A stretch of DNA of 49,646 nucleotides, the filler included, from Bipalium vagum (lineage: Eukaryota), in NCBI GenBank assembly GCA_037834085.1. It is 2 parts of 2 records of this genome, joined end to end, with 100 filler letters (N's around TTAATTAATTAA, not from the genome) between each part and the next. Parts side by side here need not be neighbours in the genome. Positions count along the whole stretch, not along the records: positions 1 to 19,539 come from JBBMKC010000650.1; 1 more part is not named here. One strand, 5' to 3'. The notes below the pieces were generated by a model. The model saw only the letters and a program-made list of their open reading frames with translations. It was not told the DNA's origin and did not search any database. A program made the translations under genes and the position numbers. Of this stretch, positions 2,700 through 34,689 are shown piece by piece. Numbering within the stretch: the first letter of the stretch is position 1; the number at the start of each line of letters is the position of its first letter.

Positions 2700-3071
2700 A
2701 AATATTTAAATAATCACATAGTTACATAATAATCTATTAAGAATAGATAAACAAAACTGACCCTGGGGGTATGAGAACGGAATTTTAACCCAAAATTCAA
2801 TAAGTAAATATTTTAAAAATTAAATATTTCATCTTTCTACAATTTTTTAATATGAGCATTTATTAAAATTTTTCATAACACTAGAAAAAAATGAAGACTC
2901 GTGTGGCATAATTTTAGGTTTTAAAAAACCTAGAGTAATTGATATATATTTTTAATTAGATAAATAACTGCAATGTTTAAATAATCTTAATATTTTTTAA
3001 AGAATTTAACTTATTTTAAGAATTAAATTTATTTACTTATTTTATTTCTTTATTCATAATATTATAATTTT

Positions 3072-6000
3072 ATGATGAAAAAAGTATCTTTCGATTTAGA
3101 AGTAAAAAATGAAGTTATGGAAATATGTATTTCATTATTAAAAGGTACGTATTTTATTTTTTAAAAATTATCCTTTAAAATGCACTTAAGTTTCTAATGA
3201 AAATGTAAACCCAACCAAACTTATCGACAAATTTGAGAAGTGTTTTATGTATATAAATATGCTAATAGACTTACAGAAGGGTATAAGTGTGATTGGTGTT
3301 TATTTGATTAATAAGAATAATTAACAGATTATTCTTTTATAAATTCTCAGAAAAATAAATCCGGTTATGATGATCGTGAATATAAATCCAAAGAGATGTT
3401 TAATGACTACAAAAACAAGGGCTTAATTTCTAAAGTATTTATTTCAAATTCAAGAGTGACCAAAGGATTGGGTTTATTTGCAAGAGAGCCAATTAACGTA
3501 GTTGTATTCAACTTTTTTATTATTTTATTAAATCCTTAGAAATATGAACTTACAATGACCATACCAGCTGGTGAGATGATCACCGAATTTGAATCATACT
3601 CATCGATATTTGGTTAGTGTTTAAAATTAATAAGCATAATTATAAATTTCAGGTGAATTTTTGCATTCGAATGACATCACAAAATCCATGCCAAATATAT
3701 CTCTTTCTCTCTATCTGTTGAATGAATATATTGGAAGAAATTCCGTGCATGAAAACTACATAAGTCTGTTTGTTACAGCAGATAATAATTTTACGATCTA
3801 AATTAGAATCAATGCCTTTAATTTTGGATACCTTTTTATATTTGAAACCTGAAGACATTCGGTTACTACGACACTCTCCGTATTTGTGTAAGTATTTATT
3901 GATCATTTTATTATTATACGAAATATCCATTTATAAATTAGTGAACAGATATCAAAATGCACATGAAAATATTGAAATTTATCTTATCTAATGAAACTAT
4001 TTCTTTATTGATAATATTTTCTCTTAAATTATGAATCTTGTCAGGAGTTCGCAACTCGTGGGTCACGAATCTAAATAAAGTCGAACTTTGTTTTTTGTGT
4101 GGTCGCGAATAAATTTGCAAAAAAAACAACGTACCATTTTTACTGTATATTGTTTGAAAGTTGATTTTCTCTTCATAGTACCACTGGTTCTACCTTGATA
4201 CTCATGACCAAATCAATGCGTTTTTTTTGCAAGCTGTCACAATTAATAAAATGCATTCAGTAATTCTGTTTTCCTGTTGGTATCATTGCTTCTTCCTCTC
4301 TGCAATATATCATTACCTCGTGATTTAATTGATCTCGTACTTATAAGGAATCATTTTTAAACTTCTGCTTACCATAAAATTCAGTCTGAAACCTTTGCTC
4401 ACCAAATTTATTATGAATAAAAATAAATTCTTTTTTCGAATCGTTAGTAAAATGGGTTGAGTATCACTAGTAAATATTACGGTTCTCTTCGAATTGAAAT
4501 CTTTTTTTGAAACAGAATTAATCAACATCTTTATTATTCTTCATAATAGAAGAAATATCAATTCAATTAAATTTAGTTAAATATTGTTCATTGAGTCTAA
4601 TAAAATGAGAAAAATTTTGAAAAGAAATTTTTCATTTCAATTGAAATTATCAAATCACATTATTTGAGTATAATCGAATTTTTTGTGAATTGTATCTTCA
4701 GTCTTAGATTTTCTTAATTTTATTTACCAACAAGTTTATTTTAATGCACGTTTTACTTTTTACTTAACCTTTTAAGATAAAAATCGTTATATATCAAATA
4801 AACAAAACCGATTTAAGCGGCTTTCTTTTGTGAAATATTTCAAATTGGAATAATAATAATCTGTCAGTCTGCAATTTTTGTGCATTTCAGTCAGGTTTTT
4901 GGAATTAGTCAGTGAATCTCACAGTTCACAGAACGATATCAAAACTTATCTCGCATTGATTGTCTGTGTGCTACTAAAAATACACGTGGGGCTCTATAGA
5001 ATAAAGTCAATTGGAAGATTCCACATTTCCGTATGAATCATCGTTCGTGTGTCTGCTGGATGGCATCAGTTCTCTAAATAAAATCGATCTGTTTGTATAA
5101 TAAGAAAATTTAGAAATTTAAAAAATCATTCGGTGTATATTAAATTATGATAAGTGAAGTCAATAAAATTCGGAAATACTTTGCTATTTTTATAGATTTC
5201 ATTCGTCTCTTTAACTTTTTTAACATTTTTTCTCTTTATTCAGTCATTTTAATTGTTTAATGATAATGAATTATGCTTCAATTTGAGTTTATTATACAAT
5301 TAAAAATTTTATATTGATTATATTTGATTATAATTAAATTAAGATAACCAATTTTTAAATGATTTCTAAAAAATAACTAAATTTAATCAATGGAAATTTA
5401 ATTTCATTGTTCAATAAAAATCAACAATTACTAAATAGTTATAAAGAAATTTAATACTCGATAAAAATTATATTTCGATATCTTGATTGCAAAAATCGGT
5501 TTCTCCATTTCCTTTTAGTCTTCGACTGTCACTTGTTAAAATATTGATTGTGGTCGTAATTTTTTTAATTGCAGTTCCGAAATTATCAATATTTTTCCGC
5601 TTCAGACGACATTGTTCAGCAGTATTCTTGCATGTGCTGTCATTATTGTTACTTTATGAGAACATTTTCGATGAGTAAATCAATCGCCGGCTGTTGGTTT
5701 CAAGAGGCTTTTTGTTTTGAAGATTTCAGGTTTGAGGACTGATGATACTTATAATTTCAAAATATTATTTTCTGTTCAGATGGGCTGTTTCCATAGTTAT
5801 GTCAAGAAACAATGCTATTCCATCAACTGATGGTTATTGGGAATTATTAATTTAGCCACAGAATTTAAATATCACTTTTTCAGGTAAATCGACGATGTTG
5901 GCTCTTGTTCCACTGTGGGACATGATGAATCACAAACACGGAGAGGTCAGTCTTTTTGTAAGCATTTGAAAAATCAATTGTCTATTGATTTCACGAACTG

Positions 6001-8615
6001 AGTTTGCGTATCTTTCAATTCTACTTTTCCAGATAACGACAGATTTCGATAATGAAAATTTATTGTTTTATGCCATGGAATCGTACGAACTCAATGACGA
6101 AGTGAGTTTTTTGTTTATTTTTATTGTTCAGTCAATTTTAGATTTTTGTTGCTATTTTAACTTGGAATAAAGGGTTTTCTTTAAAAAAAATTCATTTCAA
6201 TTGTGATCAAACTTTGAATGGGAATTTGATTGATTTAAATCATTTTAAAAATGACCTTGAAATTGTTTCCTTCATCAAGAGATAAATATTATTTTATGAC
6301 TCGGTTCCAATCTCTAAATCATTTCCTCAATTTTGTAGATTTTGGACAGACTTTGTTTAAGAAGACAACTTTAAAATGTCTGTCTGTTCTAATTATTTTA
6401 TTATCAGTTTTATTTCAATTCAGAACTAAGTGGGTAGAAGAAAAAACAAGTTTGTATCGAAAAAAGGTTGGAAACACTGGTTTCTATAATTTTATTTTGA
6501 AACAAGAAAATGCGGTATTAAAAATTAATTAAATTGTTACATCTTGATTTTTTAAATTTATTGATTGAATATAATTTTTCATAATAATAATAATAGATAA
6601 TTTTATAATTTATCTGTTTTACAAATGAACTAACGCGTTTATCATTATATAAATCTCCATTTTAAATTCATTCAATTTTTTCTTTTATTGTCTTCGAATT
6701 AATCTGTTCCTTTCACATATCATTGCTCACTCGGAATTGAAAATTTTTAGTTTTAACTTTTCATTAAAAAATAAATAAAAAGTTGTGATTATCATTCATC
6801 AATTCTTTGTTTGAGATATAAATGGTAAAACGCAATATTCTCTTCAGATTTGCATGGATTATGGAAAGCGGACAAATTTCCAATATTTCATGTATTCGGG
6901 ATTTGTACCAGAATTAAACCCCCACGACAAATATAAACTGCTTCTCTGTAAGTTGCAATTGAAACAAAAATTATTGGTATATATATATATATGGTTTGTT
7001 ATTAGCCTTTAACAAGAACGATGGGCTGTTTCAAATGAAACAGAAAATTCTGTCCAAGTTATCAATCGATTGGTAATTTTAATACTAAAAACCTGTATTG
7101 TATCAAATTTTGTAATTTTCAGTGAAAATCCAACGTTTATGGTTGATTGTAACACATTTGAGGTCTTCACCCGTGATTTGGTCATCTATTTGTCAGTTAT
7201 GTTAAATAGAGACGGTAAGGTCAAATGGAAATTGGGTTTTTTTTTTAAATATTCGAGTTTATTTTATGACAAAACCACATCGGCAATATAATGTTCAATA
7301 ATATTTTCTTGTAACATTGAAAATATTACGTGAAATGGAACCGTTGCTAATGTAGAATTTCTGTCATCACATAATTCAAGATTTTTATTTAAAAAACTGT
7401 TGGTCAATATTTTAATTTTTTCAGGGTGATAATCAGTTCTTGGGAACTAGTGTCTGTACCAATACGCTTCTTTTTTAATTTTTTATACCAAATTGTCTCG
7501 TCATTTCGCAACAACCAAGAATTTGAAATATATCGAACGTTGAGTTTCAACGGAGAATATAACACAAAATTATCGATCAATTTAAATCAGACGAGTAAAA
7601 TTATACTGTGCTGTCTTTATCGTCGTTGCACCTACATAAAACACAAGTCTGTCAGATATTCCACAGATTAAAATGGGTGCCTGTGGCTTTGTGCATTCTA
7701 GTTTCTGGGTAATCGAGCTCAGGTTCGATTTTCATTGATAGGCGCTAAACGATTCTTTCCTAATTTGTACTTTTGAATTAAAAAATTGTGCTTTAACAGT
7801 CTCTGATGTTCTGTACCCCAATTCCATTCATTAAAGAAAATTCGATTTTATTAAATTTGTATATTTATCATTGAAAAAATTTTAAAATTATGCCAATATC
7901 TAAACCAATAATATTACAAAATAAAAAAATTAATATTTTAAATTTATTTGTCTTAGACATTACTTTTTATGATGACTCGAATGAGACAAAACAGTTCAGA
8001 AACATAACAAATGTTCTATTAATTGATTTTTATATAAATATTTTAACTATGGTCTTTTTTGTTGGCACAATTTTCTATTGGCCTTCATATTTAACGAGAA
8101 GAATTAAATAATTTTTTAAAAAGAATCGATTATTAATATTTAGTGAGAGGTGTCAATTTGGACCTCCAAATCATTTTTACATCGCTTGTTCTAACTGGTC
8201 TCTTTAAAAGAGTAAGAATCATTGAAATGATTTTGTTCCCAATAAGACTACATTGTTTTTATCATTAAAAAGTGGATAGAAACCAGTACGAGTCTGAGAT
8301 GCTTTTATAACTTTCTTATAGGCAAAATGCTCGATCAATTTCTTCTTTCTCCGACCATGGAAGCGGATATAATGAAGTATTCAGAAACTGCTAAAGGTGA
8401 TATTAGGACTTTTGTTGAAAATCGATTAAAAATCAATAAAAAATGCTTTGACACAAATCTGGAAAAAGTTGTTCTCATTTCGTTTTGATATATTAATTTA
8501 TTGACAGTTAAAACAATTGATTCAGTTGACTTCCGATGAAGATCTGTTGGCAGAACGATTTCTCAGTTACGAAAAGAGAGTCGTAGAAAAAATCTTGGAA
8601 AAATGTCATGCTTAA
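3072..8615 (+). CDS. SETD3: SET-domain protein, SETD3-like actin-histidine N-methyltransferase (15 exons, ~472 aa)
   Basis: Manually spliced GT-AG exons 3072-3144, 3191-3280, 3328-3497, 3540-3612, 3653-3763, 3807-3887, 5606-5729, 5780-5832, 5884-5945, 6033-6101, 6848-6947, 7006-7072, 7123-7214, 8322-8467, 8508-8615 give an open 1419-nt frame. Motifs GLGLFAREPI, FCFEDFRWAVSIVMSRNNAIPSTDGKSTMLALVPLWDMMNH and ICMDYGKRTN...YSGF align with recalled SETD3 (FTYEDYRWAVSSVMTRQNQIP...LALIPLWDMCNH). Confidence 0.88.
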
Positions 8616-8933
8616 AATGTAATCTGAACACTTGTTTAATTTTCTTGTTAGAAAAAATTTGATTTGGTTGGTGATTTAAATCAAAAAGACTCGAAAATGC
8701 GGTTCGGTCTCAAATTCTTTCACTGAATGTGCCCTAAATCTTAATCTATGTTTTTAATTTCTTCATGAATAGTCTATAACAGTATAGAAACTAAACATAA
8801 ATATTACAAAGAAAATTTAGATCTTAAGAAATAGTCTATTTTCTAGATGAGTTATCAATATTTTTGAACAACTTATTATATTTTTATTAATAATCAATTT
8901 TATTTTGTTTAAACCATGAGAAACTTTAATATA

Positions 8934-9966
8934 CTAGGTCGTTCTAAAAGTCCCTAGTCTAAAAAACAAAAAATTTTTCAAGACATGAACCAGTTTTATT
9001 ATTCAACATAGTCTACTTTTAAGTGGATACATCGTTTCCATCGACCTTCAAGTTTTTTATAACCTCTGAAAAATAAGATTTCTCCAACCCTTGAAAATAT
9101 TCTGTAGTTTCAGCCATGACTTCACCACTTGTGTACGATGGATTTGAAAGCAAATCATAGTGCAATTCGTGTATTTTAGCGTTGAAATTACACTTTGATG
9201 AAGTGGTGGTCTTTTTCCTATGATTATATTACTTAATTGATCAAATAATCTTACATAATATTGTCCACTATATTGTTTTCCACTTTTTAAGAAATTCAAG
9301 GAATTAATATTCCATGGGTGTCCCTAAAACATTGCCAGAATCTTTTCAGCTGACTGTCGTTTGGAGCACTTACCGGGTCCTACCCATTGCTTTGTCTGTC
9401 GTGAAGATTCCGCTGTATAGTTATATATTCACATTTCTTTAACGGTTATATATTCATTTGGATTTCCATTAAAAACGCCTAAACACAACTTTGAATCATT
9501 AACTCCTTGCTTTTGATCGATTATCAAAGAGAGCGGCACCCATTTTGTGACAAGCTTTTTCATTTCCAATTCATCTTGAATTATTTACTGATATCTTTAC
9601 GAGTTTATGTAACTCGTAGATTTTGATTTTCGATCATTCATAATTGCTTCATTGACTTTTTGAATGTTCTTTGGCACCTCAATTGGGCGGCTGTTTCGTT
9701 CAGCATCATCTGTGCTTATACGACCGCGTTTAAATTCAGTGAACCGATTTCTTATCGTTGAATACGAAGCAGCAGAGTCGCCAAAATGTTTATCCAGTTT
9801 TCTTTCACCTTTTTCATCTAAAAAATCAGAACTGGGTATGTAATTTTAATGTTAGTGGATAATTTTAAAAAATTGGTAGATTTCATTAATGTTTGGAATT
9901 TCATAAACAACACTTTGGGTAATTTTTTACTATTAGTGATTTTTCATTTTCGGGTCAAGGACCTAG
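8934..9966 (-). mobile_element. Degenerate mariner (Himar1/irritans-like) element
   Basis: TA-flanked ends (ta|CTAGGTC ... GACCTAG|ta). Frameshifted minus-strand translation gives LDKHFGDSAASYSTIRNRFTEFKRGRISTDDAER, KKLVTKWVP and FLKSGK..SGQYYVRLFDQL. Confidence 0.85.
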
Positions 9967-10286
9967 TAATATTATTTGGCGAAATTTTAAATTAAGTATT
10001 AAATTCTAACAAGGATTACCGACAACATTATTGTTGAGACAACCACAATTAGTTCAGATTTTACTTGAAAATTCAATTTAAAATGCAGTCACTCTAGTTA
10101 CAATGAATTTGATTGTAACGGATTTTTTGGCTTAGTTCGATGTTACTGAATTAAAAAAAATAATCACATCTTTTTACATGTATGTTGGCATTCATAATGT
10201 TAATATTCCAAAAGAGTATTAAATAGTTTTAATTTAAATTTCGTTCACTCAAAATTTTCTTTATTCATTCGCAGCACAGACTAATT

Positions 10287-10729
10287 ACAAAAGTATGTTT
10301 GTAATTACCATTTTTTACAAATAAATTTTATTTTTTATTGTTTTAAAAAAAGTAATGAAAAAGAGAGTAGTATGTAAAACTAGACTTTGAGGACAGGACC
10401 CCAACTTTTTTATAAAAAAACCAGGCCCTGGGGGATAGGCCTAAAAATATATTTTGTCTAAATTAACATCTATATAAAAATCACGAAAAATATGAATTTA
10501 ATAATGATAAAAATATCTTATATAAAAACATTCAAAATGTATAAAATATGCCAAATAATTAAAATATTTTATCACAAAATTCAGGGTTCTTTTTTATAAA
10601 AAAGAAAATGGGAGTCCTCTTCTAAAAGTTTGGTTTTGCATACTACTCTCTTTTTCATTACTTTTTTTAAAACAATAAAAAATAAAATTTATTTGTAAAA
10701 AAATGGTAATGAGAGAAACATACTTTTGT
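10287..10729. repeat. Long inverted repeat (arms ~145 bp, spacer ~150 bp) at the left edge of the Polinton-like region
   Basis: 10287-~10430 is the reverse complement of ~10582-10729. The core ATTACCATTTTTTACAAATAAATTTTATTTTTTATTGTTTTAAAAAAAGTAATGAAAAAGAGAGTAGTATG is matched almost perfectly. Confidence 0.9.
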
Positions 10730-10989
10730 GACTTTGTAAAAAATATATTTCAATACCTAATAAAAAAACACTAAAATCCATACATTTAAAAGTATGAATG
10801 AAAAAAGTATCATAAGTATGAATGAGAATGAAATTCAAAATTTCCAATTTTTTTCCTATCTAAAGTTGGAGGTGACAGTTTAAGTCTCAAATAACAAACA
10901 ACAAATTTTTAGATAAATTCACGACAGGAAATATCCAGGTGAATTACATTTAAAATCTTTAAATCCTTTTAACAAAACAAACCGAGTTC

Positions 10990-11425
10990 CAACTTTAGAG
11001 TACCAGGCTCACATATAAATACACGTTTAGAAAATTATGAAGAGATAGTAAATAATTATAAAGAAACAGAAGAACTAAATATCCCTCAAATTCCAATAAA
11101 TCAAATAGATCAAGCAGCAATGAATCATGATGTAAAATATATGTCAACAGATATAAAAGATCGACATATTGGAGGTGTTGAAATGATTCATAAAATGAAC
11201 AACATTCAAAATCCAACTCCAAGAGAAAAACTTGAAAGAGCAATTGTAAAATTAATTATGAAGAGCAAGAATGCTCTAGGAAGGGCGGTGCCGCTCAAAC
11301 CAAAAATTGCTTTAGGATTAGGTTTACCACGAGCAACAAAAAATATTGAACCTTTGTCTAGAGCAACAAAGTTTCTCACTAATGAAAAACTATTTGAAAA
11401 CTCAAAAATCATTCCAAAAAAATAA
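10990..11425 (+). pseudogene. Parvovirus-type phospholipase A2 domain (Polinton/adintovirus PLA2), frameshifted
   Basis: FRVPGSHINTRL ... PINQIDQAAMNHDVKYMSTDIKDRHIG.VEMI fits the PGT..RL / P.N..D.AA..HD..Y...R pattern of viral PLA2, followed by LGLGL. Confidence 0.75.
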
Positions 11426-11590
11426 AATTCTGTAAAAGAACTTCATAAAGAATTCAGAAAACTTAAGATTTTCTTAAAAGTAAAAGTTTTTAATAAAGAT
11501 GATATTTGGTCTGCAGATTTAACTTTTGTCCCTGGAGAAAGAGATTATAAAATAATTCTAAGAGTTATCGATTTATATTCTCGTTTTTTT
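11426..11590 (+). pseudogene. Polinton c-integrase (rve) N-terminal fragment
   Basis: VKELHKEFRKLKIFLKVKVFNKDDIWSADLTFVPGERDYKIILRVIDLYSRF matches the Polinton integrase ELHK..R...V...DD.W.ADL....YK.IL.VID..S pattern. It is truncated by unrelated sequence at ~11590. Confidence 0.85.
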
Positions 11591-12123
11591 TACCGTTCTT
11601 TTCACTGACGTCATTTATTATTGATTTCATGATATTATTTTTATTTTAATGTTTTTTATCATATTTCATTATTATATCAATTTTATTATATTTTTTCAAT
11701 ATTTATGGATATTATTAAATTGATTTCATTATGTTACCATTTGATTGATTCGCTTTAATCCTGTCATTTTTGGGGATTTTATTGCCATATGTTATACTTT
11801 TCAATATGCCACCCACTATTGTAGGTTGTTTTCGTTTTTATATGTAATGCCATATGTTATAATTTATTTTATTTGTATTTCGGGATTTTAAACGTCGCCT
11901 ACTGCCTTCTTCAAGTATTATTATTATTACTTAATTTAATATTATTGTTATACCCTTTTTAGGTTGCGCTTTACTTTGTGGTACAATTTTGTTTGATGAA
12001 AGAAAGTTGTAAAAAATAACAATATTTGATGACATTGCGATCCTCTTCAGATTTTTCTCTTTTTGTTTGACGACTCTCACAGAAATAAAAGATAAAATAG
12101 ATGAAAAACCTGAAGAATAAAAA

Positions 12124-12290
12124 TCAGATGGAGTTCTACCATTAATTCCGATTCTTGGAGAAATATTTTCTGGTTTAGGAGCAGTTGCTGGAGGAGTTGC
12201 AACAGCGGTTCAGAAAGCAAAAGAATCCAAAAAAATAATGCAGAGAAAGAAAAGATTGAAGTGGAAAAACTTAAACCCAAGACGAGCTAA
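12124..12290 (+). pseudogene. Adenovirus pX-like hydrophobic peptide of a Polinton/adintovirus virion protein (fragment)
   Basis: Translation SDGVLPLIPILGEIFSGLGAVAGGVATAVQKAKE resembles the GG(F/V)LPL...GA.AGG.A motif of pX-like domains. Confidence 0.6.
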
Positions 12291-13496
12291 AGCTGTCGAT
12301 CCTTATTTTGGAAAGATACAATTCAATATCTCAGAAGAAAAAATTTTTTAAAAACCTGAAAAAAAAAGGTATTACAAAAACTTTATAAAAATAAACTGGA
12401 AACCATAAAACAAGAAAATTGATTATATTTTGATTTTTATGAGAAAAAACAACTTTCCCAACTTCAAAACAAGTGAAAAGCAATGCTTAGAATCAGAAAA
12501 TATATTTTTAAATGTTACTGGTAATGAAATGAGTAAATGTAAGAGAACCAAATGATAACGATGTTGTAAATTTAAAGTATAGGAAACAAATTTATTTAAT
12601 GCAATTAGTATATATAAAATTATTGGTAAAACACAATTCTTTTATTTAATATTCGAAATCAACTAAAAATATAGAAAAAATTGAGAGCGAATTAGCACTA
12701 CGTAACCCTGAAGATCTAAAAAAATATCAAAGATATAAAATTTGCTAAGAATATGAAAAATTTAGAACACAATTTTTATCATATATTGAATCATTTTAAA
12801 ATGTCAAACTGAAGATTCTGATAGAAAAGATTTCAATAGAAAACAAACTTAAATAACGCAATAGTAAATATAATAAAAGAATCTGAAGATGTTCAGAAAA
12901 TTATAATTCGTCGGCTTCGCAACCGACGTTTCGCACTCTTATAGAAAATATAAACAGTTTCGGATATTTTGATTTTGATATTTAAATTGATATATTGTTA
13001 AAATAAAATTGAAAACCACTGTAATAGTATTAATTTTATAGTATTAATGATAATCATGTTTTTGGTTGGTATCTTAATATTTTAGCGTTATTTATTATTA
13101 TATATTTATGATGTTATGGAAAAACTATTGTTCTAGAAAAAATATCTAAAGGAATAAGTCACTAAATCTTAATACGTATTCAACAATTTTCCAATCAATG
13201 ATTATGAATATAAAAAGTAGCATACTTTAATAGTAAAAAAATATTTCATATTTTGCTAATTGGAAATAAAATTGATAAATAATATTTAAAATCCTATTAA
13301 TTTTTTAAGACCGTATCAAAAAATTATAAAACCCCTGTAGATGTTAAAAATTAAATAAAATTCAAAATATAGTTCAAAAAATATATTTATAAAGCAATTT
13401 CTGGATTCAACTCTTTACACTCTCCTTCTTGAATACCTAAAAAATAAATGAATAAATACTGCTTTAATTCATTTTTCATAATTTAAATTATATTTA

Positions 13497-13547
13497 TCAG
13501 GGTTAAAAAGCTAAAACAATCATTATCAAGATACAAAATTTCATCAA
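13497..13547 (-). ncRNA. SNORD36: Box C/D snoRNA, U36/SNORD36/snR47-like (18S Am guide), copy 1
   Basis: TTGATGA (box C) ... AGCTTTTTAACC-CTGA (box D). The guide is complementary to conserved 18S GUUAAAAAGCU and has the same 3' end as recalled U36 (GAGCTTTTTAACCCTGA). Box D lies 60 nt from the 3' splice site. Confidence 0.85.
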
Positions 13548-13698
13548 TAATATATATGTGTATATATGTATAAGTGTAAGTTTTGAAAAACATACCTCAG
13601 AATTTTTTTAACCAATTTGTCGTGCTCTTTTCCTAAAAAGAAAAGTTTCAAATAATATACTTAAATATTATGATAATTTTATCATTTTAATCATTTAA

Positions 13699-13748
13699 TC
13701 AGATTATATTTTTCATCAACTGAGCAGACAGGGATAACGATTCATCAT
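13699..13748 (-). ncRNA. SNORD1: Box C/D snoRNA, snR38/SNORD1-like (28S Gm guide), copy 1
   Basis: ATGATGA-ATC-GTTATCCCTGT-CTGC(D')-TCAG-TTGATGA(C')-AAAATATAAT-CTGA(D). The guide is complementary to 28S ACAGGGAUAAC. Confidence 0.85.
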
Positions 13749-13909
13749 TTTTTTCGTATTACATGAAATTGGTATCAAAAGTAAGCTTACCCTTTGGTGT
13801 TTGTATTACTGTAATTTGGAATTTTGACGAAATTGATGTTCAGTCTGGAAAATTAAATGAAAATTAATATGGCAACACTTTAATTGATAATCACTCAAGA
13901 AATGAGAAT

Positions 13910-13960
13910 TCAGGGTTAAAAAGCTTTAACTCTCATTTTCAAGTGTAATAATTTCGTCCT
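13910..13960 (-). ncRNA. SNORD36: Box C/D snoRNA, U36/snR47-like, copy 2
   Basis: AGGACGA (degenerate box C) ... TTGA(D') AA ATGAGA ... AGCTTTTTAACC-CTGA. Box D lies 65 nt from the 3' splice site. Confidence 0.75.
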
Positions 13961-14097
13961 TTTAATAATTGGTTAATAAATTAACAGCTACTCACCAAAA
14001 ACTATTGAGAACTTTGTCATTTTTGAGATATACCTAGAAATAATAATCAAAGTTAACTTAATAGCGCACTTTTCTTTATAATGAAAGATCATGAAAA

Positions 14098-14147
14098 TCA
14101 GAACAAAAATCACATCATCTTATCAGACAGGGATAACGATTCATCAT
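14098..14147 (-). ncRNA. SNORD1: Box C/D snoRNA, snR38/SNORD1-like, copy 2 (best consensus)
   Basis: ATGATGAATCGTTATCCCTGTCTGATAAGATGATGTGATTTTTGTTCTGA has perfect C, D' and D boxes and an 11-nt 28S antisense element. Box D lies 64 nt from the 3' splice site. Confidence 0.9.
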
Positions 14148-14272
14148 TTTTAATCATATTCGTATTACAATACAACTTACAATTTTTACAGGAACTGTGG
14201 CTTTTTACCTAAATAAAAATATCTAATTATATCGAAAATATCATATCAAATATTAATATTTAAATAAACAAT

Positions 14273-14324
14273 TCAGTGTTAAAAAGCTTTAACTCTCATT
14301 ATCAAGTTATGTATTTTTCATCCT
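14273..14324 (-). ncRNA. SNORD36: Box C/D snoRNA, U36/snR47-like, copy 3
   Basis: AGGATGA(C)-AAAATACATAAC-TTGA(D')-TA-ATGAGA-GTTAA-AGCTTTTTAACA-CTGA(D). Confidence 0.8.
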
Positions 14325-14499
14325 TTATACATACATAAATATAATACATATATTAATATTAAAAGGACATACTTTTGATGACTGCTGCATTAATTGCTTA
14401 TTCCAAAAAGTTTTCTGTGTAACCAGTTCCATTATTCTTCAGGTCCTATAAAAATATGATGATAAGTATTATTAAAAATAATGGACTAGATAAAACTTT

Positions 14500-14549
14500 T
14501 CAGATTATTATCTTCATCAGCTAAACAGACAGGGATAACAATTCATCAT
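14500..14549 (-). ncRNA. SNORD1: Box C/D snoRNA, snR38/SNORD1-like, copy 3
   Basis: ATGATGAATTGTTATCCCTGTCTGTTTAGCTGATGAAGATAATAATCTGA; D' is CTGT. Confidence 0.8.
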
Positions 14550-14594
14550 AAAAATTAAATGATTATATTTAAAGTCTATATTGGATAAAACTTT

Positions 14595-14644
14595 TCAGAT
14601 TATTATCTTCATCATCTAAACAGACAGGGATAACAATTCATCAT
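14595..14644 (-). ncRNA. SNORD1: Box C/D snoRNA, snR38/SNORD1-like, copy 4 (recent ~95-bp tandem duplicate of copy 3)
   Basis: Differs from copy 3 at a single position between boxes C and D; the offset is 95 bp. Confidence 0.8.
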
Positions 14645-14799
14645 ATAAAATAAATGATTATATTTTAAAAGTCAGTAGACCAAAAAATATATTTAATCAT
14701 TATTTCTATTTATTAATCATTTCATTTCAAAACTGATAGAAATAAAAGCTATATTAATAACAAAAAGTTATCACAATAATTATTTAGTCATGTTTAAGA

Positions 14800-14853
14800 A
14801 CAAGACAATAATTTTAGCTCAACAGTGAGCAGACAGGGATAACAATTCATCAA
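14800..14853 (-). ncRNA. snR38/SNORD1-like copy 5, degenerate (no terminal box D)
   Basis: TTGATGAATTGTTATCCCTGTCTGC is retained, but there is no CTGA at the expected box D position. Confidence 0.55.
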
Positions 14854-15989
14854 AATATACTAATTATTAGTCTAATCATTAAGACAAGTTACCTTTTCAA
14901 AATATATTTCTCTAATGAAATGAAGATATTTAAACAACTTTATTTGAAAATTTAAATTAAGATTTAAATCCTAGTCTTAAATTTTAAAATAAGCTATATA
15001 TTTAAGAATGTGATTGTGATTGAAATCTCAAACTCTCATAAATAATGTCAAAAAGCTACTGAATATCTTTCGTTTAGTAGGATCTGCAGAATATTATAAA
15101 ATACAAAAAAATATTGCTTGTATCATGCAAGTTAAAAATTTCCTTTCTAAATTATTCCATATTCTAATTTTAGAAGTCAATTTTTTAATTTTAAGTGAAA
15201 TTTAATTTATTTAGTAATAAAATGATTAAAATTTTTATGGACTATTTTTTTTAAAAATTATTTGACGTTTTATCTGAACTGATTCTAGCAATTCAATAAC
15301 AATTTCCATTTTAATTTTTTAAACAATCTCTTGTTATTCTGGTAATAATGAAATTTTCACCTCTACTTCGGCCCTTCCTAATTCTGCGAGGTTCTGCGTT
15401 GCTTGAAGTAATTCTTTGTTTATTGGTCCCGTTGAGTTCGATAGGTCAATATAACTGTTTCCTGCTAATCTTGGCTGTCCAAAATGGTCAACTTACACTA
15501 GCAATATTATCGTTTCCTCATCCGCACAATCCATTCCACAATCCGTTAGGTACTTGTCATTATCAACTGATAAATGCTACAAAATATTATAATAATCCAT
15601 TAATGACCCATCGTCTGAATTGCTCTTTCCCTTACTGTTCTCATTCTCGCGCAATAGTTCAAACTGAACTTATGATCCATCCATCCAATCTTTTTCAGTT
15701 TGATTTTAATCGGTCGCTGATCTACTCCTCAGCCGCGTGTATCTTCCTTACCCTCTTACTAGAGCTCTCATTTCTGCTTGTGGAACTCCAGACACACATA
15801 CTAGCACACATACCAGTTCGTTCGTCAAAAACGTGTTTACCAAAGTAGTACTCTATGTGTCGAAAAAGAATAATTTTTTTTTCTTAAAAAAATAACTAAA
15901 AAAAATAATTTTAAAAATTTTAAAAATCAAAAAATTTAAAACTGAAAATATATAATTTTCTTTTGAAAAATTTCTACTCGAAACACTGC

Positions 15990-18900
15990 AAATTCCCTCA
16001 TCAATCTTGATGAATGGAAAGCTATAAAAAGTATTTTACCTTTTGAAGAATGTTCTTTTCCTGTCGATTTATTTCATGATGGTTACAATCTAAGATTTTT
16101 AAGTTTTGAAGGTAATAAAATAACTTATTTAAATTCTTATTATTATAAAAAATATTTGGAACAGTTTATCAATTTAAAATTTCTCCGAAGGATGTTACAG
16201 AAAAGACCATTACTAATTGTTTAAATCGTATTGTAGAAACTATAACAAATAATAATGATAATTACATAATGTATAATAATAAGCTAACACCTTTACATCC
16301 TTTAATTTATATAGGATATAGTTGTTTTCCTTTATGTAAAAAAGATGAAGTAGTAAATCAATTATTTACAAGATTAGAAAAAATTTTACAATCAGAACAA
16401 ACTTTAAATATTGAAGATGTAATTTTTGAATTTTTACTTTTACCAATACCTCAAGAAAAAGGAAAATAACTACAGTGCACAACGGTTACATCGAAGTTGT
16501 GGGGAACTCCAAAATACTTCGATGTAACCGATACTTCGATGTAAACGAAAAAAATTTTAAAAAATAACATTTTAAACTATTTATTTATGAAAATAGTCGA
16601 TTAAAGTTTTCTGAATTGGTCGAGATTGTAGTATATCATTTTCCACAAGTTCTTCTACCTGTGACATTGTCGATTTTATATTGGTAGAACCGTAAAAGTC
16701 TTTGTTGGACAAAAATTTTAAGACAACTCTCAAGTTTGTCATCGCTTCTTTACTTGTAACCTGGATATTTAATTTGCTACGATGTAACCGGACTTCGATG
16801 TAAGCGTAGTACGATGTAACCATTGTGCACTGTATATTAATTATAGTGGAAATAATTCTAAAAATTTAATATTAAAAAATTTTGCACAGATTTCTATTAA
16901 CATAATTCAAATTAATTATACAATCTGTTTAGCAAGATCAATAATAACTTCTTTAACATATGATAACTTTACGAACAAAAACTTTTTAAAATTTGGAGAA
17001 CGTGAATATAGAATTAGATATATTAGAAGAGGTGATCCAATACAAGAAGAATGGGCAATAAAATTACATAATATGGCTCAAGTAGAAATTAAAGAAACTG
17101 GAAATAATATTGATGATTTAAAACAATTTGAAATTTTTTACAGTAAGAATTATAGTTTATTCTCATAATGATAATCAAGTGATTCTATTTTATATAGAGG
17201 AAATGAACCATTTGAAAAACACACTTTTACTTATTATGATCAAAAAAATCATCATTTTATTTCAATTACAAAAATAACAGCTTTTTTATAATCATTAAAA
17301 TATTGTAATAAATGTTTAATTGGATTTAAAAATCACCATACACGTAAAATAGATAGCTTATAAAATAGTAAATAATAGTTAAATAGTAAAATAGTTAATC
17401 TTATAGATATAAAAAAGTTTGTAATATTTGTAATGAAGAATATTTTAATTAATATCAACAGAAGTGTGGTTATAAGAATTGTCCAATTTGTAATGAACAA
17501 TACAAATTTGTACAAAAATATTTATGTCTATGATAGCTAATGAAGAAATTGGAATACCGAGATTAATTAATTTTTAAGATATATATTCTTATAAATGTAT
17601 TAATTGATTAGAATATTTAAGTAAAATTGGTAATATAAAAATTCAACATGAAAAAGAGGAGGAGAAGAATCAATAAGAGCTAATAATAAAAAAATATAAA
17701 GTTGACGGATTTTATTATGACCAAACTTCTAAAACTTATTATATTTATAATTATAATGGTTGTTATTTTCATGGTTGTTTAAAATGTTATAATAAAGATG
17801 AAGTTTGTAAAAAGGAAATGAAACAATGGAAATTTTAAATAATCGTACTTTATAAAAAAAGAATAATATTATAAAACATTGTGAAGATATAAATTTAAAA
17901 TTAGAATTATAGAATTATGGGAATATGAATATGAAAAGCTTTTAGCAAATCCTGATTTTAAAAATTTTAAAATTGATCCAGAATTATCTAAACTAAAACC
18001 AAAAGAAGCATTTTATGGAGAAAGAACTCAACCTATTCAATTATATCATAAAAGTGAAACTGAAAAAATCAAATATGTAGATTTTGTATCTTTGTATCCA
18101 ACTGTAAATAAATACGATGAATATCCAATTGGACATCCTAGAAAAATATTTAATATTTCACCAGAAGAATATTTTAAAAATGGTGTCATTAGAAATAAAA
18201 CCATTTCTAATGACAAAGCTACGCATAATTACTTTGGAGTTATAAAATGTAAAATTTTACCACCAAGAAATTTACATTTACCAGTCTTACCTTATAAACA
18301 AGAAATAGGAAATGCTCACAAGTTATTATTTGGATTATGTAAAACATGTATGGAAAAAATAAATATTAATTGTAATCACTATGTTAAAAGCAGTTGTTGT
18401 CCAAATATCGAAATTCAAGATCATAAAATAAATAGATGCAAAATCTGTATAAATAATAAATATAACTTAATTCATTCAAAAAGAAATTGTAAAATTTGTT
18501 ATAATTTTAGAAATGAAAAATGTAATCATAATGATGAAGAAAGATCTTTAATAGGAACATGGTCAACTATTGAAATAGATAACGCAATTGAAAAAGGATA
18601 TAAAATTGTAAAATTTTATGAAATAGAACATTTTGAAAAAACTAAAAAATTATGTAAGTATATTTATGAAATATAAATTGAAAGCCTCTGGTTGTAAATG
18701 TAAATATCATTCTGAAAATTTTTCAACAGGTTGTGATAAACATTGAAACGAAGATTGTAAATATGATAATAATTGTAATACAAAAATTGAATTCGAAGCA
18801 GAAAATATTGCTTATGATTTAGATATTGATAATATTAAATTTAATGCTGGTTTAAAATTTATGGCTAAAATTTGTTTAGTTAGTTTATCGGGACATTTTG

Positions 18901-19090
18901 GAATGAGAGATGATTTTGAACAATGTTCATTTGTTTATAATTATATTGATATTTGTAAAATAATATTTGATGACAAAATTAAAGAACCAAACCCAATTAT
19001 TTTAAATGAAGAAGTTTGGATGATGAAATATCATATAAAAGAAGAATGAAAAAATCCAAATAAAACTAAAAATATTTATATAGCATTAAT
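15990..19090 (+). pseudogene. Polinton/Maverick protein-primed DNA polymerase B, frameshifted
   Basis: YKVDGF...YNGCYFHGCLKCY (endonuclease-like insert), PKEAFYGERT, KYVDFVSLYPTVNKYDEYPIGHP (motif A), FGVIKCKILPP..LPVLPY, ERSLIGTWSTIEI, NAGLKFMAKICLVSLSGHFG (degenerate motif B) and NIYIA. Truncated before motif C; the 5' boundary is approximate. Confidence 0.9.
16473..16832 (-). mobile_element. Pogo/Tigger-type internally deleted element (360 bp) inserted into the PolB relic
   Basis: TA TSD; TIRs CAGTGCACAACGGTTACATCG / CGATGTAACCATTGTGCACTG; subterminal CTTCGATGTAA repeats. The residual minus-strand ORF ends in QKTLIDYF (PIP-box-like C terminus). Confidence 0.88.
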
Positions 19091-19129
19091 AAATTATAAA
19101 TTTAATTATAAAATTATAATTTTTTTCTT

Positions 19130-19539
19130 GTTTTAAATCCTTTATTATTTTTGTTTCATCTTCTTTAATTTTATCAGGAATCCATCCAAATAATTCTCCA
19201 TCATTATTTTTATCAATCATTATAAAATTAGTTATAGAATTTGATGAACCTAATTTTTGAATAGTTTCAACTTCTGTTGATCCTAATTTTAAAGTTGCAT
19301 ATGAAAATAAATAAAGAAAAAAGTTATTTTGTAAAGTTATATTATCTTCTGGTTTTATTCCTTTTATTTCAATGTCATAAATAAAATATGCTTCATATAA
19401 ATTTAAACGATTTGTTTTTGGTGTTATTATAAATGTTAAATTTCCATTATCATTTAAATTTCTAATTGTTTCTGGATCTAAACTTACTTCATAATAATCT
19501 GTTTTTTCATATGCTGTTTTTCGATGATAGTAATTTTTA
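19130..19539 (-). pseudogene. Polinton major capsid protein (double jelly-roll) N-terminal fragment
   Basis: Minus-strand translation EDNITLQNNFFLYLFSYATLKLGSTEVETIQKLGSSNSITNF...GELFGW resembles the Polinton MCP L.NN...YLF....L....E.I..G pattern. It runs into the gap. Confidence 0.6.
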
Positions 19540-19639: not shown

Positions 19640-21053
19640 TCTAACCTATATCAATAGAGTTAGCATTTTTATAATTTCGAGATTAGATCTCGCAGTAAGC
19701 GTCGAACCAAAGTAAACTCATACAAATTTGGCAACAGCCTTACATTTGGTCCAAACACTTACATACGACACAAAAATTTAAAAAGAATATAAAAAACACT
19801 AAAACACTAGAATGTTTTTAGATCATTTTATTGTTATTTATTGTTTTTTCGAGAAGAATTTGAAACTGAATTTGGGACCATGTCTGGGAGTCTCTACAAG
19901 TGATTAGAATAAACGTTTATCGTTATGAACAACACTCATCCTAAAAACGTAACATAAGTATTATACCAACCTAAAACATGATAATTATTTGTTGATTCAA
20001 AATTGTTGGGTTTACCCAAGACACTCCGGGGAAATAAAATCAAGGAAAATCATAAAAAGAGTATAGATGTTAAAAAAATAATCGTAATAATAATAATAAT
20101 TAAAATTAATTAACACTTGAATAACAATTAAAAATTTATAGATATTTTTAGTTTGAAAATACTTAGAAAATAAAACAACCCTCCAAAATTAATTTTTATT
20201 TTTAAAGAAGTCCAAAAGAGGTAATTTACAAATATTAATGGTATTAGAACATAATTTTTTAGGGAATTCTAGAGTTTTAATAATTTTTGAGAATTTTAAG
20301 ATTAATTTTGAGATTATTTCAAGAATAATATTCAGATGAAGATCATTTTCAGAAAAGTATATAAGCAGAGGGATTCTAGCATAATTTCACCCCTCAGAAA
20401 TCGTGATAAGCAGAAAAAGGATTACAGAGAATATTTTGAATACGAGAAGATTGATATTATTTCACGGAGACGTATTGGAAAAGCATCGATACCGCATTGG
20501 AAGACTATCGTTAACAGAGATCAGTCCAAAATTACGGAGGCAGACCCGTGCCCAAAGGATATTATCTTCAAAACCAAGTATTATTATGAATTCAGTATTC
20601 GGACTATGCTTAAAATTCCCCATCAGCGAGTTATCGGTGAGCAACCGTTTGGGCTCAGACGATAACTCGGGAGTTTTAGCAGAAGATAAATTGTAAGATC
20701 TTTCTATTTTTTTTCTGTGAACTTTATTTTCTTTTTACAAAAGTAATTATTAATTTAAAAGTAATATTTTGTTTTAATCGAACTTTAATATTTTGTTTTA
20801 ATTAAACCTTGATTATAATTGATTAGACATTATTGCTGAGACATTACATTTACTTCATTCTTTATAATTATTGTTATTGGGTTGTATTGTGTTTGTGAAA
20901 CATTTCAGATATTAATTGTGATCCCAGACTCTTGATTATCTTTCTGTATTTCGTGTATTTTTTAAGATTGTGTGATATAAATACAATTGATGCTTTACTG
21001 ATTGTTATTATTTGCATCACCTAAGAGTTGGAGTCAGATCTAAATTTGATACA
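19640..21053 (+). repeat. Dispersed repeat, possibly a solo LTR (copy A)
   Basis: 19640-19712 is similar to 36805-36877 (TCTAACCTAT..GTTAGCA..TTTCGAGA..ATCTCGCA.TAA.CGTC.AACCAAA). The 3' end CCTAAGAGTTGG..GATC..TTTGATACA resembles ~37526-37562 and finishes in CA. No pol domains are seen. Confidence 0.45.
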
Positions 21054-25100: not shown

Positions 25101-28100
25101 TCTGTATTTGTGGCTAGAAATTATTTAACCTTAAAATCAACACACAAAAAAGTTGAATTTTACCAAAAACGGCTTTTTCAAATGATTTTATGAATTGGAT
25201 TTTGGTCAAAAAAACTAAAATACAAAGTTTAAAGTTCATCATAATAAAAATAAGTTTCAAAACTACTGCATTTCGTTACAAGGAAGTTAATATAATTTTC
25301 TAATAGTAAACATTGATTTTTTCCATTTTAAAATATATTTTGACTTAATTTAAAGTAAAATAAAATTTAACATCTATTCACTTCTCAATTGATAATTTTA
25401 TAAACCTTTATTTCGACATGTTTGATTAAAAATTATTATATTTATGGTCGGAAGATGATTAAGCTTGACTTACAACTTCATATTCAGAAATATTTTATTT
25501 TTTCCTTTTGGTACTAAGTTTTAATTAAGTTGATGTCATATTTATTATTTTAAAAGAAGAATCCTTAGACATTTTTTATTTTCAATAAATTTTTATAAGT
25601 AAAATAATCATAATCATATATTTAATTAAATTTTATTTGCATTGATTTTTATTCTTCTGGAAGATTTAAGTTATTTTTAGTGAATCTTTCACATCTTATT
25701 GTTTCGCACTGCACACAGAAAAAATAAAAAAAATCACCTTTTCCAAATATTTTTAATTAATATTTACGAAATTAACTGAATCAATTAACAATCAATATTT
25801 GTGGCCTTTTAACGTTCTCAAAAATTTATTAATGAGGTATGATCACTATATTTATTTTTGCATTCTTTCAGGCGTGGTACAAATTACATTGTGAATTGTT
25901 TCTTATGGAATAGAAATCCACTCATATCATTAACCTATTTGAAATCCTATTTACATGCATACCTTGTAATTATCTCTTAAACAGTGCCATACTTCCTCTC
26001 ACAAGTGCTCAATTGGGAACAGTTTGGGGATCTTGTGTGCTATGGAAGAACTGCAATTGTATCGAATTCCTAATTTATGAAGTCTGGTATTGTCCTTTTG
26101 TAATGTCAGATTATTCTTTTTAACAATTTTAAAAGGTCCGTTTTGATATTTCAATTATTTCTGATACATCCCGAAGGCTAATACCTGTCTCCAACAATCA
26201 CCATTTCTTGAATTCTAATATTTCCACCATATTCTTAACTGATATGTGAATAAAAACTGAAATAAATTATTTTAACTTAATATAGATGTGGCCAAGTCAC
26301 TGAACATGCTATTTTTGTCTTTTTTGAGTTGATAGTTTCCTGTCAATATTCTTGTTTGCAAGTCAATAAAAATCATTTGACGTTACTGTTTCCGATAAAT
26401 ATCTAGGTAAGCATAAACTTCGTTTGGTTAAATTTTACAGTTTTTTCTTAGTCTCTATTGAAATAATAGCACCAAAAAATTAGGTAAATTGATTTACAGT
26501 CTGAATAGCAAATCAATTCCAGAAATATCAACAAAAGTAGGTTTTGTTAAGTCTACAGTCAATAATTTGCTTGTCTCGCTACAAGGCTACAGGTAGTTGA
26601 AAATATAAGAAACATAAGGGCCGATCACGTGCTAGTAGTATGCGTCATGTCCTTGCTCATTCATTTTCTAACAGTAATCACGTAAAGGATGCAGTAGATT
26701 ATATAGCAAGTACGCACATAATTCATTAGAGATTGGTGGATGAATTCAACTACAAGTCTCACCATGTTGAAAAGAAACCTTTACTAAAGCCATTTTAATT
26801 GAAGAAGACACTTCAATTCTTCAAGACCTATGCCTGAGCAGCAGTGCTAGGAAAAAATGTTTTGCGACGAATGTTCGTTTCAACAATTTGGCCTTGGATC
26901 CCTCCGTGTAAGACGCTTTCAAAATAAAAGATTCTGTCCACAAAACACATTTCCTACAGTGAAACATAGTCCTAAGGGAAAATTGGGATGTCTTAGTGCT
27001 GCTGGACATGACAATTTGGTATTTATACCTGATGGAAAGACAGTAAATGCTCAGATGTACCGCACCATACTTGAAGAAAGGCTTGAGGGACAATGCTGAT
27101 GCACAGATGTTACATATTTCAGTAAGACAGTGCCTTAAAATACCACTGGTACTGTGAAGAATTGGCTTAAAGAGAAGAAGATTAAACTATTGTACTGGCC
27201 TGGGAATTTCCCTGGACTGAATCCAATTGAAAATTTATGGCAATTCCTAAAGAAGGCACAACATCATGCACTAAGTAATCTACAATGCCTCTATTACTGG
27301 ATAGAGTGTGGGATAAGAAAGTGTCTGAAGATGTTTTCCACAATCTGGTCGTTTCCATGACGATCGCATTTAGAAAATATGCAAAGGACAGGTGCCTAAA
27401 TATTATTGGGTCGTAACGTGCTTGTAATAATAACAAAAATTTTCCGAGTGAAAGGTGTCTTTTGACTACAACTGTACATATAAATTAAACATTATTTTAT
27501 TTTCAAATTATAAAATTGACATATTTGATTACTTTTGACCTACCATTATGTTTTTTTAAAAAATAAACTTAGTTTAGTTTCGTAAATATTGCAGATGAAT
27601 ATGCTGTATGTTTCAAAATTTCATTTTATTTCAATAAGAATGGAGAAAATTTATAAAAAATCATGAATGGATAATATTTGAAGATAACTTAGAATATTAA
27701 AATTGATTTAAGATCAAATGAAAAGATCAAAACATATTAAAATAGTATTATACTAAATACATTGGTGGAAATATTTTTCTGACACTTAAAATTTTTGTGA
27801 TAAAAGAAAAAAAATATTTTTGAAAGTTGTTGATATTTATCGGTTTCACATGCTAAAAAGACACTCAATATATATATCTACATTTCAAAGACTTGTTTAA
27901 ATAATATCTATAAATCGAAAATTTTAAATGGAAACATTTCGCAAACAGTTTAAAAGGTTTCCTTTCTGCATTTTTGTCATTCATCTGGTAATCACTCACC
28001 TTACTTTTGTATCAATATATTGCTTTTTTATCAATAGTGGATCTTTAAACATTCAATGTTTGTGCCATTTTTCCCAAGCGTTTCGAAAGGATCTTCTTGA

Positions 28101-33420: not shown

Positions 33421-33429
33421 TCTTCATGT

Positions 33430-34280: not shown

Positions 34281-34689
34281 CATATTATATATATATTAAG
34301 TAGTCTATTTATTAAACATTATTATGTATTTAAGTTTTTTTATTATGTTTTAATTGTTATTATAAAATTTAATGTTTTTGAAAATTTAATAGATTAATAA
34401 TGGTAACTTCTTTTTTGCAACACCTTTTGGACTAAGGTAATTGATTTCAATTTGATAATGAATCGAACAAGTTCAATTGTCGAACAAGTTCATTGTCACT
34501 TTAAAATTCTTTTCAGATACATAAACAGAAAACACATAACTTAAGCACCAAAATCAAACCTATCTTATTAATTATATGATAATTAACAATAATATACCGT
34601 TTTTCAAAAATATAATAATTCATGAATATTTAAATACAATAAAATATATTTACACAATTTATAAAAGCAATTAAAAAATTTCTATTGAT

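Follow-up and report, generated by a model that had tools for sequence, protein, structure and literature searches.

The window, by which we mean the whole 49,646-nt stretch of Bipalium vagum DNA analysed here (assembly GCA_037834085.1), carries a predicted snoRNA host gene that lies between the remains of Polinton/Maverick genes. The features of the interval from 10,287 to 19,539 are as follows:

10,287-10,729, no strand: self-contained palindromic MITE-like element (self inverted match of 443 bp, 73%; arms of 110 nt, 87%)
10,973-11,593, plus: relic of a Polinton PLA2-integrase fusion, 5' part only, integrase core cut off (PLA2 and INT profiles, tblastn)
12,121-12,261, plus: pX-like relic (single tblastn match to the pX of the related locus L019, 38% over 50 aa, E 3e-6)
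12,300-13,330, no strand: AT-rich stretch (one motif recalls a repeat of the fibre-like ORF of L001; no significant match)
13,330-14,920, both ends approximate, minus: predicted non-coding snoRNA host gene (splice-site pattern, spacing, no ORF)
14,892-14,446, 14,372-14,209, 14,180-14,034, 13,995-13,845, 13,790-13,633 and 13,595-13,437, minus: predicted introns 1 to 6 (GT...AG)
13,497-13,546, minus: snR47/SNORD36-type C/D snoRNA, intron 6 (Rfam and guide/D box pattern)
13,699-13,747, minus: snR38/SNORD1-type C/D snoRNA, intron 5 (Rfam RF00213, E 0.003)
13,910-13,959, minus: snR47/SNORD36-type C/D snoRNA, intron 4 (C box deviant)
14,098-14,146, minus: snR38/SNORD1-type C/D snoRNA, intron 3 (Rfam RF00213, E 1.3e-4)
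14,273-14,323, minus: snR47/SNORD36-type C/D snoRNA, intron 2 (Rfam and guide/D box pattern)
14,500-14,548, minus: snR38/SNORD1-type C/D snoRNA, last copy of intron 1 (Rfam RF00213, E 1e-4)
14,595-14,643, minus: snR38-type copy of a recent 95-bp tandem duplication, intron 1 (period 95, 96% matches; Rfam E 0.0014)
14,800-14,852, minus: degenerate copy of the snR38 type, with C box, guide and D' box but lacking a terminal D box over 40 nt (Rfam E 9.3)
15,300-15,860, no strand: block of higher GC (38%) separating the snoRNA gene from PolB; it contains an ORF of 166 codons on the plus strand (15,348-15,845)
16,158-19,091, plus: protein-primed PolB relic (PF03175, E 5e-11; tblastn map; profile; tree)
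16,471-16,834, no strand: MITE inside PolB, presumably of Tc1/mariner type (terminal inverted match of 23 nt, 96%)
19,089-19,539, minus: N-terminal part of a double jelly-roll major capsid protein (MCP) gene (profile iE 6e-13; PF21738, E 0.024), abutting the cut PolB and running into a gap

The combination of C box, snR38 guide and D' box occurs five times on the minus strand (at 13,725, 14,124, 14,526, 14,621 and 14,830), and that of snR47/U36 guide and D box three times on the same strand (at 13,497, 13,910 and 14,273); 100 shuffles for each pattern yielded 0 matches. Four of the five snR38 copies have a full set of C, D', C' and D boxes and the snR38 guide preceding D', the copy at 14,800-14,852 being without terminal boxes. 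All three snR47-type copies have the guide directly before the D box and a C box upstream (TGATGA, GGATGA and GGACGA, with a deviant box in the intron 4 copy), and their second guide position, at D', varies from copy to copy. Rfam detects snoR38 at E 1e-4 to 3e-3 in four of the five copies (E 9.3 in the remaining one) and snR47/SNORD36 at 21.7-27.4 bits (E 1 to 4.6) in the other three. Compared with the families snR38/SNORD1 (RF00213) and snR47/SNORD36 (RF01203/RF00049), the guide and adjacent box are identical to the consensus in the alignments shown, but the copies in the window are shorter; owing to their shorter spacers, none of them reaches the Rfam gathering score, the best snR38 copy attaining 41.8 bits (E 1e-4) against a cut-off of 45. 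In Arabidopsis, the two families are described as sitting in different clusters (PMC2875012), and our literature search found no report of a host gene common to both.

Six GT-AG introns can be predicted together with these five snR38/SNORD1-type and three snR47/SNORD36-type snoRNAs; five of them hold one snoRNA each, and intron 1 holds three snR38 copies. The distance from D box to acceptor is 60-66 nt in the five single-snoRNA introns and 54 nt for the last copy of intron 1, placing six of the seven complete copies at 54-66 nt and the duplicated copy at 149 nt. Because the processing of intronic snoRNAs is reported to depend on their position relative to the branch point (PMC13736004), this constant spacing is consistent with a working host gene. 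The predicted spliced exons contain no protein ORF, the longest Met-started frame having 34 codons with a first exon that is not fully defined, and a coding role of the exons was rejected on this basis. The snoRNA bodies are 76-82% identical between paralogous introns and their flanks 45-59%, where random pairs average 51% with a 95th percentile of 60%. This conservation of the bodies beside flanks that have diverged to the level of random pairs suggests long selection on the RNAs, and the snoRNA gene is likely an old host gene, predicted to be still working. The nearest known type of non-coding snoRNA host gene is that of UHG/SNHG1 and GAS5, which it resembles in its short, poorly conserved exons without an ORF and in introns that each hold a box C/D snoRNA at a constant distance from the acceptor. 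It differs from these genes in carrying just two guide families, which alternate over five introns, in its very compact RNAs (about 49-51 nt) and in having three snR38 copies in intron 1; no 5' terminal oligopyrimidine start was found in it. Judging from the sequence, RNA polymerase II would transcribe the gene leftwards, splicing would release the introns, and box C/D RNAs of roughly 50 nt would be trimmed from them, leaving exons that are likely disposable. With fibrillarin, the snR38 type is predicted to direct 2'-O-methylation to the large-subunit position that corresponds to human Gm4362, and the snR47/U36 type to the small-subunit position that corresponds to human Am668; both targets are taken from PMC3511168.

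To the left of the gene, a PLA2 profile built from relatives matches 11,120-11,281 (iE 6e-8), and the start of an integrase lies at 11,477-11,593 (iE 9e-5), covering the first 44 of the 245 positions of the rve integrase profile. The tblastn comparison of this relic with the fused ORFs of L019, L006 and L001 gives E values of 5e-13 to 1e-10. A pX profile from the same kind of source has no match at the pX-like relic or elsewhere in the window. To the right, five segments spanning 16,161-19,091 match the relatives' PolB profile (best iE 2e-93); this gene is damaged by frame changes, stops and the loss of about 280 residues inside and about 160 at the C terminus. The MCP profile match at 19,164-19,496, on the minus strand, corresponds to profile positions 24-144 of 570, and the right end at 19,539 is the start of the gap (from 19,540), not the end of an element. 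Packaging ATPase, cysteine protease and minor capsid genes were not found in the window with the relatives' profiles; the ATPase and protease may lie in the gap. Profiles and tblastn thus confirm the arrangement given in the preliminary description, with PLA2, integrase and pX on the left and PolB and MCP on the right, pX from one tblastn match. Its picture of relics riddled with stops beside largely intact snoRNAs holds for the snoRNAs, whose boxes and guides are mostly kept and for which GT-AG introns can be drawn, but overstates the stops, of which there is one in the 207 codons of the PLA2-integrase relic and 15 in the 816 codons of PolB; the main damage consists of truncation, deletion, frame changes and MITE insertion. 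Open stretches of 255 codons (within PolB) and 150 codons persist in the relics while the intron flanks are at background identity, suggesting that the decay of the relics is likely younger than the snoRNA cluster.

Protein-primed PolB, rve integrase, double jelly-roll capsid, PLA2-like and pX-like genes are all shared with the Polinton/Maverick and adintovirus-like elements treated in PMC8502044 and PMC6431247; in contrast to those elements, the genes of the window are all broken and without terminal repeats. PLA2 is fused here to the integrase, as in L001, L006, L013, L016, L018 and L019, whereas the PLA2X described in PMC8502044 is PLA2 fused to pX. Two origins had been proposed for the locus, capture of the snoRNA cluster by one Polinton and separate Polinton insertions on either side of a host snoRNA locus. 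Under the first, one Polinton would have taken the host snoRNA gene as cargo, moved it here, and later been rearranged (by at least one inversion) and inactivated, with the host keeping the cargo working. We regard this as unlikely, although several observations favor it: the nearest Polinton genes lie ~1.1-1.3 kb from the snoRNA gene on each side on one gap-free contig, no Polinton core gene is present twice, and the integrase piece on the left and the MCP piece on the right both have their closest matches in one and the same set of loci, a set that forms the sister group of the PolB clade in the tree (94/80 support). Precedents for cargo also exist. The nematode Mavericks described in 10.1101/2022.07.12.499685 carry intron-containing host-derived cargo of 2-5 kb (wasp proteases, krma kinases), and the window likewise has an intron-containing host-type gene beside Maverick core genes. 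That cargo consists of protein-coding genes, is placed between left terminal repeat and integrase in largely complete elements, and recurs across species; the window presents a non-coding gene, located between pX and PolB and between broken relics. Protist Polinton-like viruses share with the window the presence of host RNA genes within or between such elements (PMC12220804), including U3 snoRNA matches in dinoflagellate elements and a 5S rRNA gene in one complete element. All 22 snoRNA rows of Table S11 of that work are U3 from one dinoflagellate, in contrast to the methylation guides in a predicted spliced animal host gene seen here.

The gene layout of the window was compared with 82 related Polinton loci (512 kb), which were chosen by PolB and are mostly partial, several of them near-identical, so that counts among them are not independent. 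All 11 loci compared for integrase and MCP have the two genes on one strand, as do all 8 compared for pX and MCP, where the pair lies within 35 nt in six cases; the PLA2-fused integrase is downstream of PolB in 6 of 6, and an integrase upstream of a co-oriented PolB occurs in 0 of 21. The window breaks all four rules, since its MCP is opposite in strand to integrase and pX and its PolB is downstream of both, and capture would need extra rearrangements to account for this; its gene order matches no single relative. In the PolB clade nearest the window, no core gene precedes PolB in 8 of the 9 loci with more than 400 bases there, suggesting that PolB mostly comes first among the genes of the element and that the snoRNA gene would lie outside it. 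The nearest PolB (P0102, 60% identity) is a sequence without genomic context, and the exact family of the window is absent from the loci compared. The integrase, PolB and MCP relics may belong to one family: the shared nearest group of the integrase and MCP pieces speaks for it, and against it stands the integrase of the nearest PolB locus, which is without PLA2 and scores 26.9 bits against the left relic, compared with 35-45 bits. No inverted or direct repeat pair encloses the snoRNA gene in the window, and the anticipated terminal inverted repeats with target-site duplication were likewise not found there, the right side being lost in the gap.

Nor were these snoRNAs found in the related Polintons. 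Across the 82 distant loci, models of these snoRNAs gave no match above 15 bits, as against 54-66 bits for the window copies; Rfam at gathering score gave 0 matches on 12 of these loci, a weak result since this setting misses the window copies too. IMG/VR scans with the window PolB piece and with P0102 returned no locus, the alignment scan returned two, and the MCP scan returned only L001 again. The snR38 pattern has 0 matches in IMG/VR and 0 in prokaryote genomes. The snR47 16-mer has 28 matches in IMG/VR (best 15.9 bits); no C box stands upstream of any of them, none is accompanied by a Polinton gene, and all were taken as chance. The evidence gathered points away from capture. Equally improbable is the version in which a Polinton took up an entire spliced snoRNA host gene with two universal rRNA methylation guides, moved it and died around it, leaving a host dependent on or supplemented by virus-borne guides. 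If true, this would be the first case found of methylation guides as animal Polinton cargo, our literature search having found no earlier one; it would provide a concrete DNA-based route for snoRNA relocation and raise the question of whether Polintons tune host ribosomes. How snoRNA genes change position is treated as an open question in PMC3511168 and PMC13736004.

Two further explanations involve the Polinton relics without single-element capture. Two copies of one family may have landed on the two sides of the host gene and later carried it along or duplicated it as one composite, or a local rearrangement may have brought the gene into an existing Polinton cluster. When the relics are read against L001, L006, L013 and L019, whose layout is co-linear, the left one corresponds to the tail of a plus-strand element and the right one to the head of a second plus-strand element, and snoRNA genes are reported to change position often (PMC3511168). 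No inner terminal repeats are present at 12.9-13.3 and 15-15.9 kb, however, the MCP fragment is inverted relative to the co-linear layout, and there is no sign of movement, so that we consider either course quite unlikely. An assembly artefact joining repeat-derived pieces to a real snoRNA gene is very unlikely: the gap falls directly at the MCP fragment and the best public run contains 58% of the sampled words (second run 0.06), but positions 1-19,539 belong to a single contig without gaps, on which a SETD3-like gene lies as well, and the relics are diverged, not collapsed identical repeats.

The locus is most probably an old host snoRNA gene with two decayed Polinton insertions beside it, the second of the origins proposed earlier and one that fits every test run. 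That there were two insertions is read from the gene order, no element end or target-site duplication having been found for either relic. A precedent is the 18S rRNA gene flanked by a pair of adjacent Polinton-like viruses, which was likewise interpreted as two insertions (PMC12220804). Certain observations count against two insertions: two Polinton relics beside one 1.6-kb gene are a coincidence, the integrase and MCP pieces are nearest to the same loci, and an old gene can still be captured late. Related layouts also vary widely: in L043, capsid, protease and ATPase precede PolB on the same strand, and in L003, the nearest locus, an integrase precedes PolB, though divergent. Read as a host gene beside two insertions, the locus offers a useful annotation, namely a compact flatworm snoRNA host gene missed by Rfam default thresholds, in which two ancient guide families appear to alternate under purifying selection within a transposon-rich interval.

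The region holds many further transposon relics, including the MITE inside PolB, whose type we assigned from its TA-flanked CAG...CTG ends. The palindrome at 10,287-10,729 was rejected as a Polinton left end, having no partner elsewhere in the window. Rfam found nothing in the 12,300-13,330 stretch, and a fibre-like gene at 12.3-13.0 kb was rejected for want of a significant match. The 166-codon ORF has no Pfam family and 0 matches among 1.84 billion representatives; a retrotransposon gag at 15.3-15.9 kb was rejected on the Pfam result. At 15,844, six bases are similar to the start of contigs L019 and L060, a motif too short to count. Searches for a second PolB-class relic at 33.3-34.3 kb, suspected from motifs, were not significant. 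Pfam was negative on three exon pieces of the SETD3-like gene, and all ten PDB matches of one of its exons are SETD3, at E 0.12.

The window is AT-rich with few genes, and the snoRNA gene that the preliminary description had placed between Polinton relics proved to be there, with snoRNA patterns at its core and profile matches on both sides. The minus strand from 13.3 to 14.9 kb carries the combination of C box, snR38 guide and D' box five times and that of snR47/U36 guide and D box three times, against no match to either pattern in shuffled sequence. The guides are identical to the Rfam consensus, and snoR38 is the top-ranked Rfam family for four of the snR38-type copies (E 1e-4 to 3e-3), with snR47/SNORD36 matches at E values of 1 to 4.6. 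No match over the snoRNA gene attained the Rfam gathering score, because the snoRNAs (13,497-14,852, minus) are short, measuring ~49-51 nt from C box to D box; short length may also be the reason that flatworm snoRNAs are under-annotated. Both snoRNA families are described in a published account as ancestral to eukaryotes, with human LSU Gm4362 and SSU Am668 as targets (PMC3511168). The guides in the window are expected to pair with the rRNA of this organism.

Six predicted GT-AG introns bracket the snoRNAs. Intron 1 contains three copies of snR38, of which one is degenerate and two derive from a 95-bp duplication (96% identity), and introns 2 to 6 hold snR47, snR38, snR47, snR38 and snR47, in that order. 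The D box precedes the acceptor by 64, 64, 65, 66 and 60 nt in introns 2 to 6; in intron 1 the distance for the last copy is 54 nt. A comparable donor-plus-acceptor bracket was found at 0.4% of random positions, a frequency that applies to patterns picked post hoc on data already seen. The longest Met-started frame in the predicted spliced exons is 34 codons. In four pairs of paralogous introns the snoRNA bodies are 76-82% identical and the flanks 45-59%, with random pairs at 51%. The gene is presumably spliced and expressed, and it appears to be an old gene of the host, kept under selection. Just upstream of its first donor site is a 53-bp imperfect palindrome (14,940-14,992; 85%), which could be either a promoter element or an AT-rich chance occurrence. 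Head-to-head with the gene lies a block of 38% GC (15,300-15,860) containing a 166-codon plus-strand ORF with a hydrophobic start, for which no homologue was found among 1.84 billion representatives.

Homologues of the window PolB are animal Polinton-type polymerases. Search profiles were made from the ORFs of 82 related loci (two from IMG/VR and the top 80 among 192 metagenomic ones; L047 duplicates L001).

Protein-coding features and relics in the window, with supporting evidence
11.0-11.6 kb, plus strand: PLA2 and start of integrase (profiles from relatives)
16.2-19.1 kb, plus strand: PolB (profile from relatives)
19.2-19.5 kb, minus strand: start of the major capsid protein, MCP (profile from relatives)
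40,390-41,121, minus strand: long exon from a gene for a claudin/PMP22-like membrane protein (Pfam match, E 0.008)

The PolB relic changes frame, has 15 stops over 816 codons, lacks ~280 residues internally and is cut at its C terminus; a MITE flanked by TA sits within it. The PLA2-integrase has one stop in 207 codons and is truncated ahead of a complete catalytic core. For pX there is a single tblastn match, and these profiles found no ATPase, protease or minor capsid gene in the window.

Gene order was counted only in loci with both genes detected, with L047 dropped. The integrase and MCP genes are on the same strand in all 11 related loci that have both, and the pX and MCP genes in all eight (next to each other in six). 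The integrase lies downstream of PolB in 18 of 21 loci and upstream but divergent in the other three, and all six PLA2-fused integrases are downstream of a co-oriented PolB. In the window, integrase and pX are on the plus strand, MCP is on the minus strand 7 kb away, and PolB is downstream of the integrase on the same strand. This order matches none of the related loci, which are partial and partly redundant and do not include the window's own family, the nearest PolB (P0102, 60% identity) being without context. Of the 26 loci in the PolB clades closest to the window, nine extend more than 400 bases ahead of PolB, and eight of these nine show no core gene in that stretch. The simplest account is two pieces on either side of the snoRNA gene, the left a remnant of an integrase-to-pX arm and the right a remnant starting with PolB. 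We regard an old host snoRNA gene under selection, flanked by two decayed Polinton insertions, as the probable reading. That a single Polinton captured the gene is unlikely. Locus L043 does show that PolB can be placed downstream of virion genes of the same orientation. Six of the loci (L001, L006, L013, L016, L018 and L019) form a group in which the N terminus of the integrase carries a fused PLA2-like domain and every gene lies on one strand; in L020 it is a protease that is fused to the integrase.

The PolB tree groups the window with P0102 and mussel elements (support 100/97), and L003, the only locus of this group, has an integrase without PLA2. The short left integrase piece scored 26.9 bits against the L003 integrase and 35-45 bits against PLA2-fused integrases, and the short right MCP piece is likewise nearest to PLA2-fusion loci. 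Composite movement or relocation is about as unlikely as capture. The window contains no inverted or direct repeat pair enclosing the snoRNA gene, and none facing inward from the two relics. Of the boundaries given in the preliminary description, the left is a self-contained palindromic element and the right is the assembly gap that begins at 19,540. Misassembly is very improbable; positions 1-19,539 are without gaps.

Searches of the 82 loci with exact patterns and with models derived from the window copies turned up nothing similar, the best scores being 9.4 and 14.8 bits, versus 54-66 bits in the window. In IMG/VR the snR38 pattern had no match, and the snR47 16-mer had 28, all of them lacking both a C box and a Polinton gene. 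As the 82 loci are distant relatives from other hosts, this absence shows only that snoRNA cargo is not a family-wide trait. Nematode Mavericks are described as carrying cargo genes for proteins, located between the integrase and the left terminal repeat (10.1101/2022.07.12.499685), whereas the gene here is a predicted non-coding snoRNA host gene. For protist Polinton-like elements, another study reports 22 snoRNA matches, all U3 and from one dinoflagellate, along with a complete element that contains a 5S gene and two adjacent elements separated by an 18S gene, an arrangement interpreted as two insertions; examples of non-coding RNA genes lying inside or between elements of this kind have thus already been published (PMC12220804). 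Literature surveyed mostly at overview level contained no description of an animal Polinton with methylation-guide snoRNAs.

A gene that is possibly SETD3-like lies on the left. At 22.1-22.8 kb is the final exon of a gene for a G-protein alpha subunit; its best named matches are from trematodes and cestodes (~50% identity), which makes a flatworm host likely. A broken minus-strand frame at 33,300-34,300 gave nothing significant in Pfam, homologue or atlas searches; its motifs resemble those of the N terminus of a different class of Polinton PolB. Another MITE-like element, at 1,934-2,709, has inverted arms of 115 nt (91-94%). Mariner/Tc1-like transposase relics, from weak Pfam matches and tblastn, are at 9,600-9,845, 26,850-27,360, 35,400-35,900 (presumably of this type) and 42,600-43,400. 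A 72-bp repeat (78%) occurs directly after the assembly gap (19,640-19,711) and again at 36,805-36,875.
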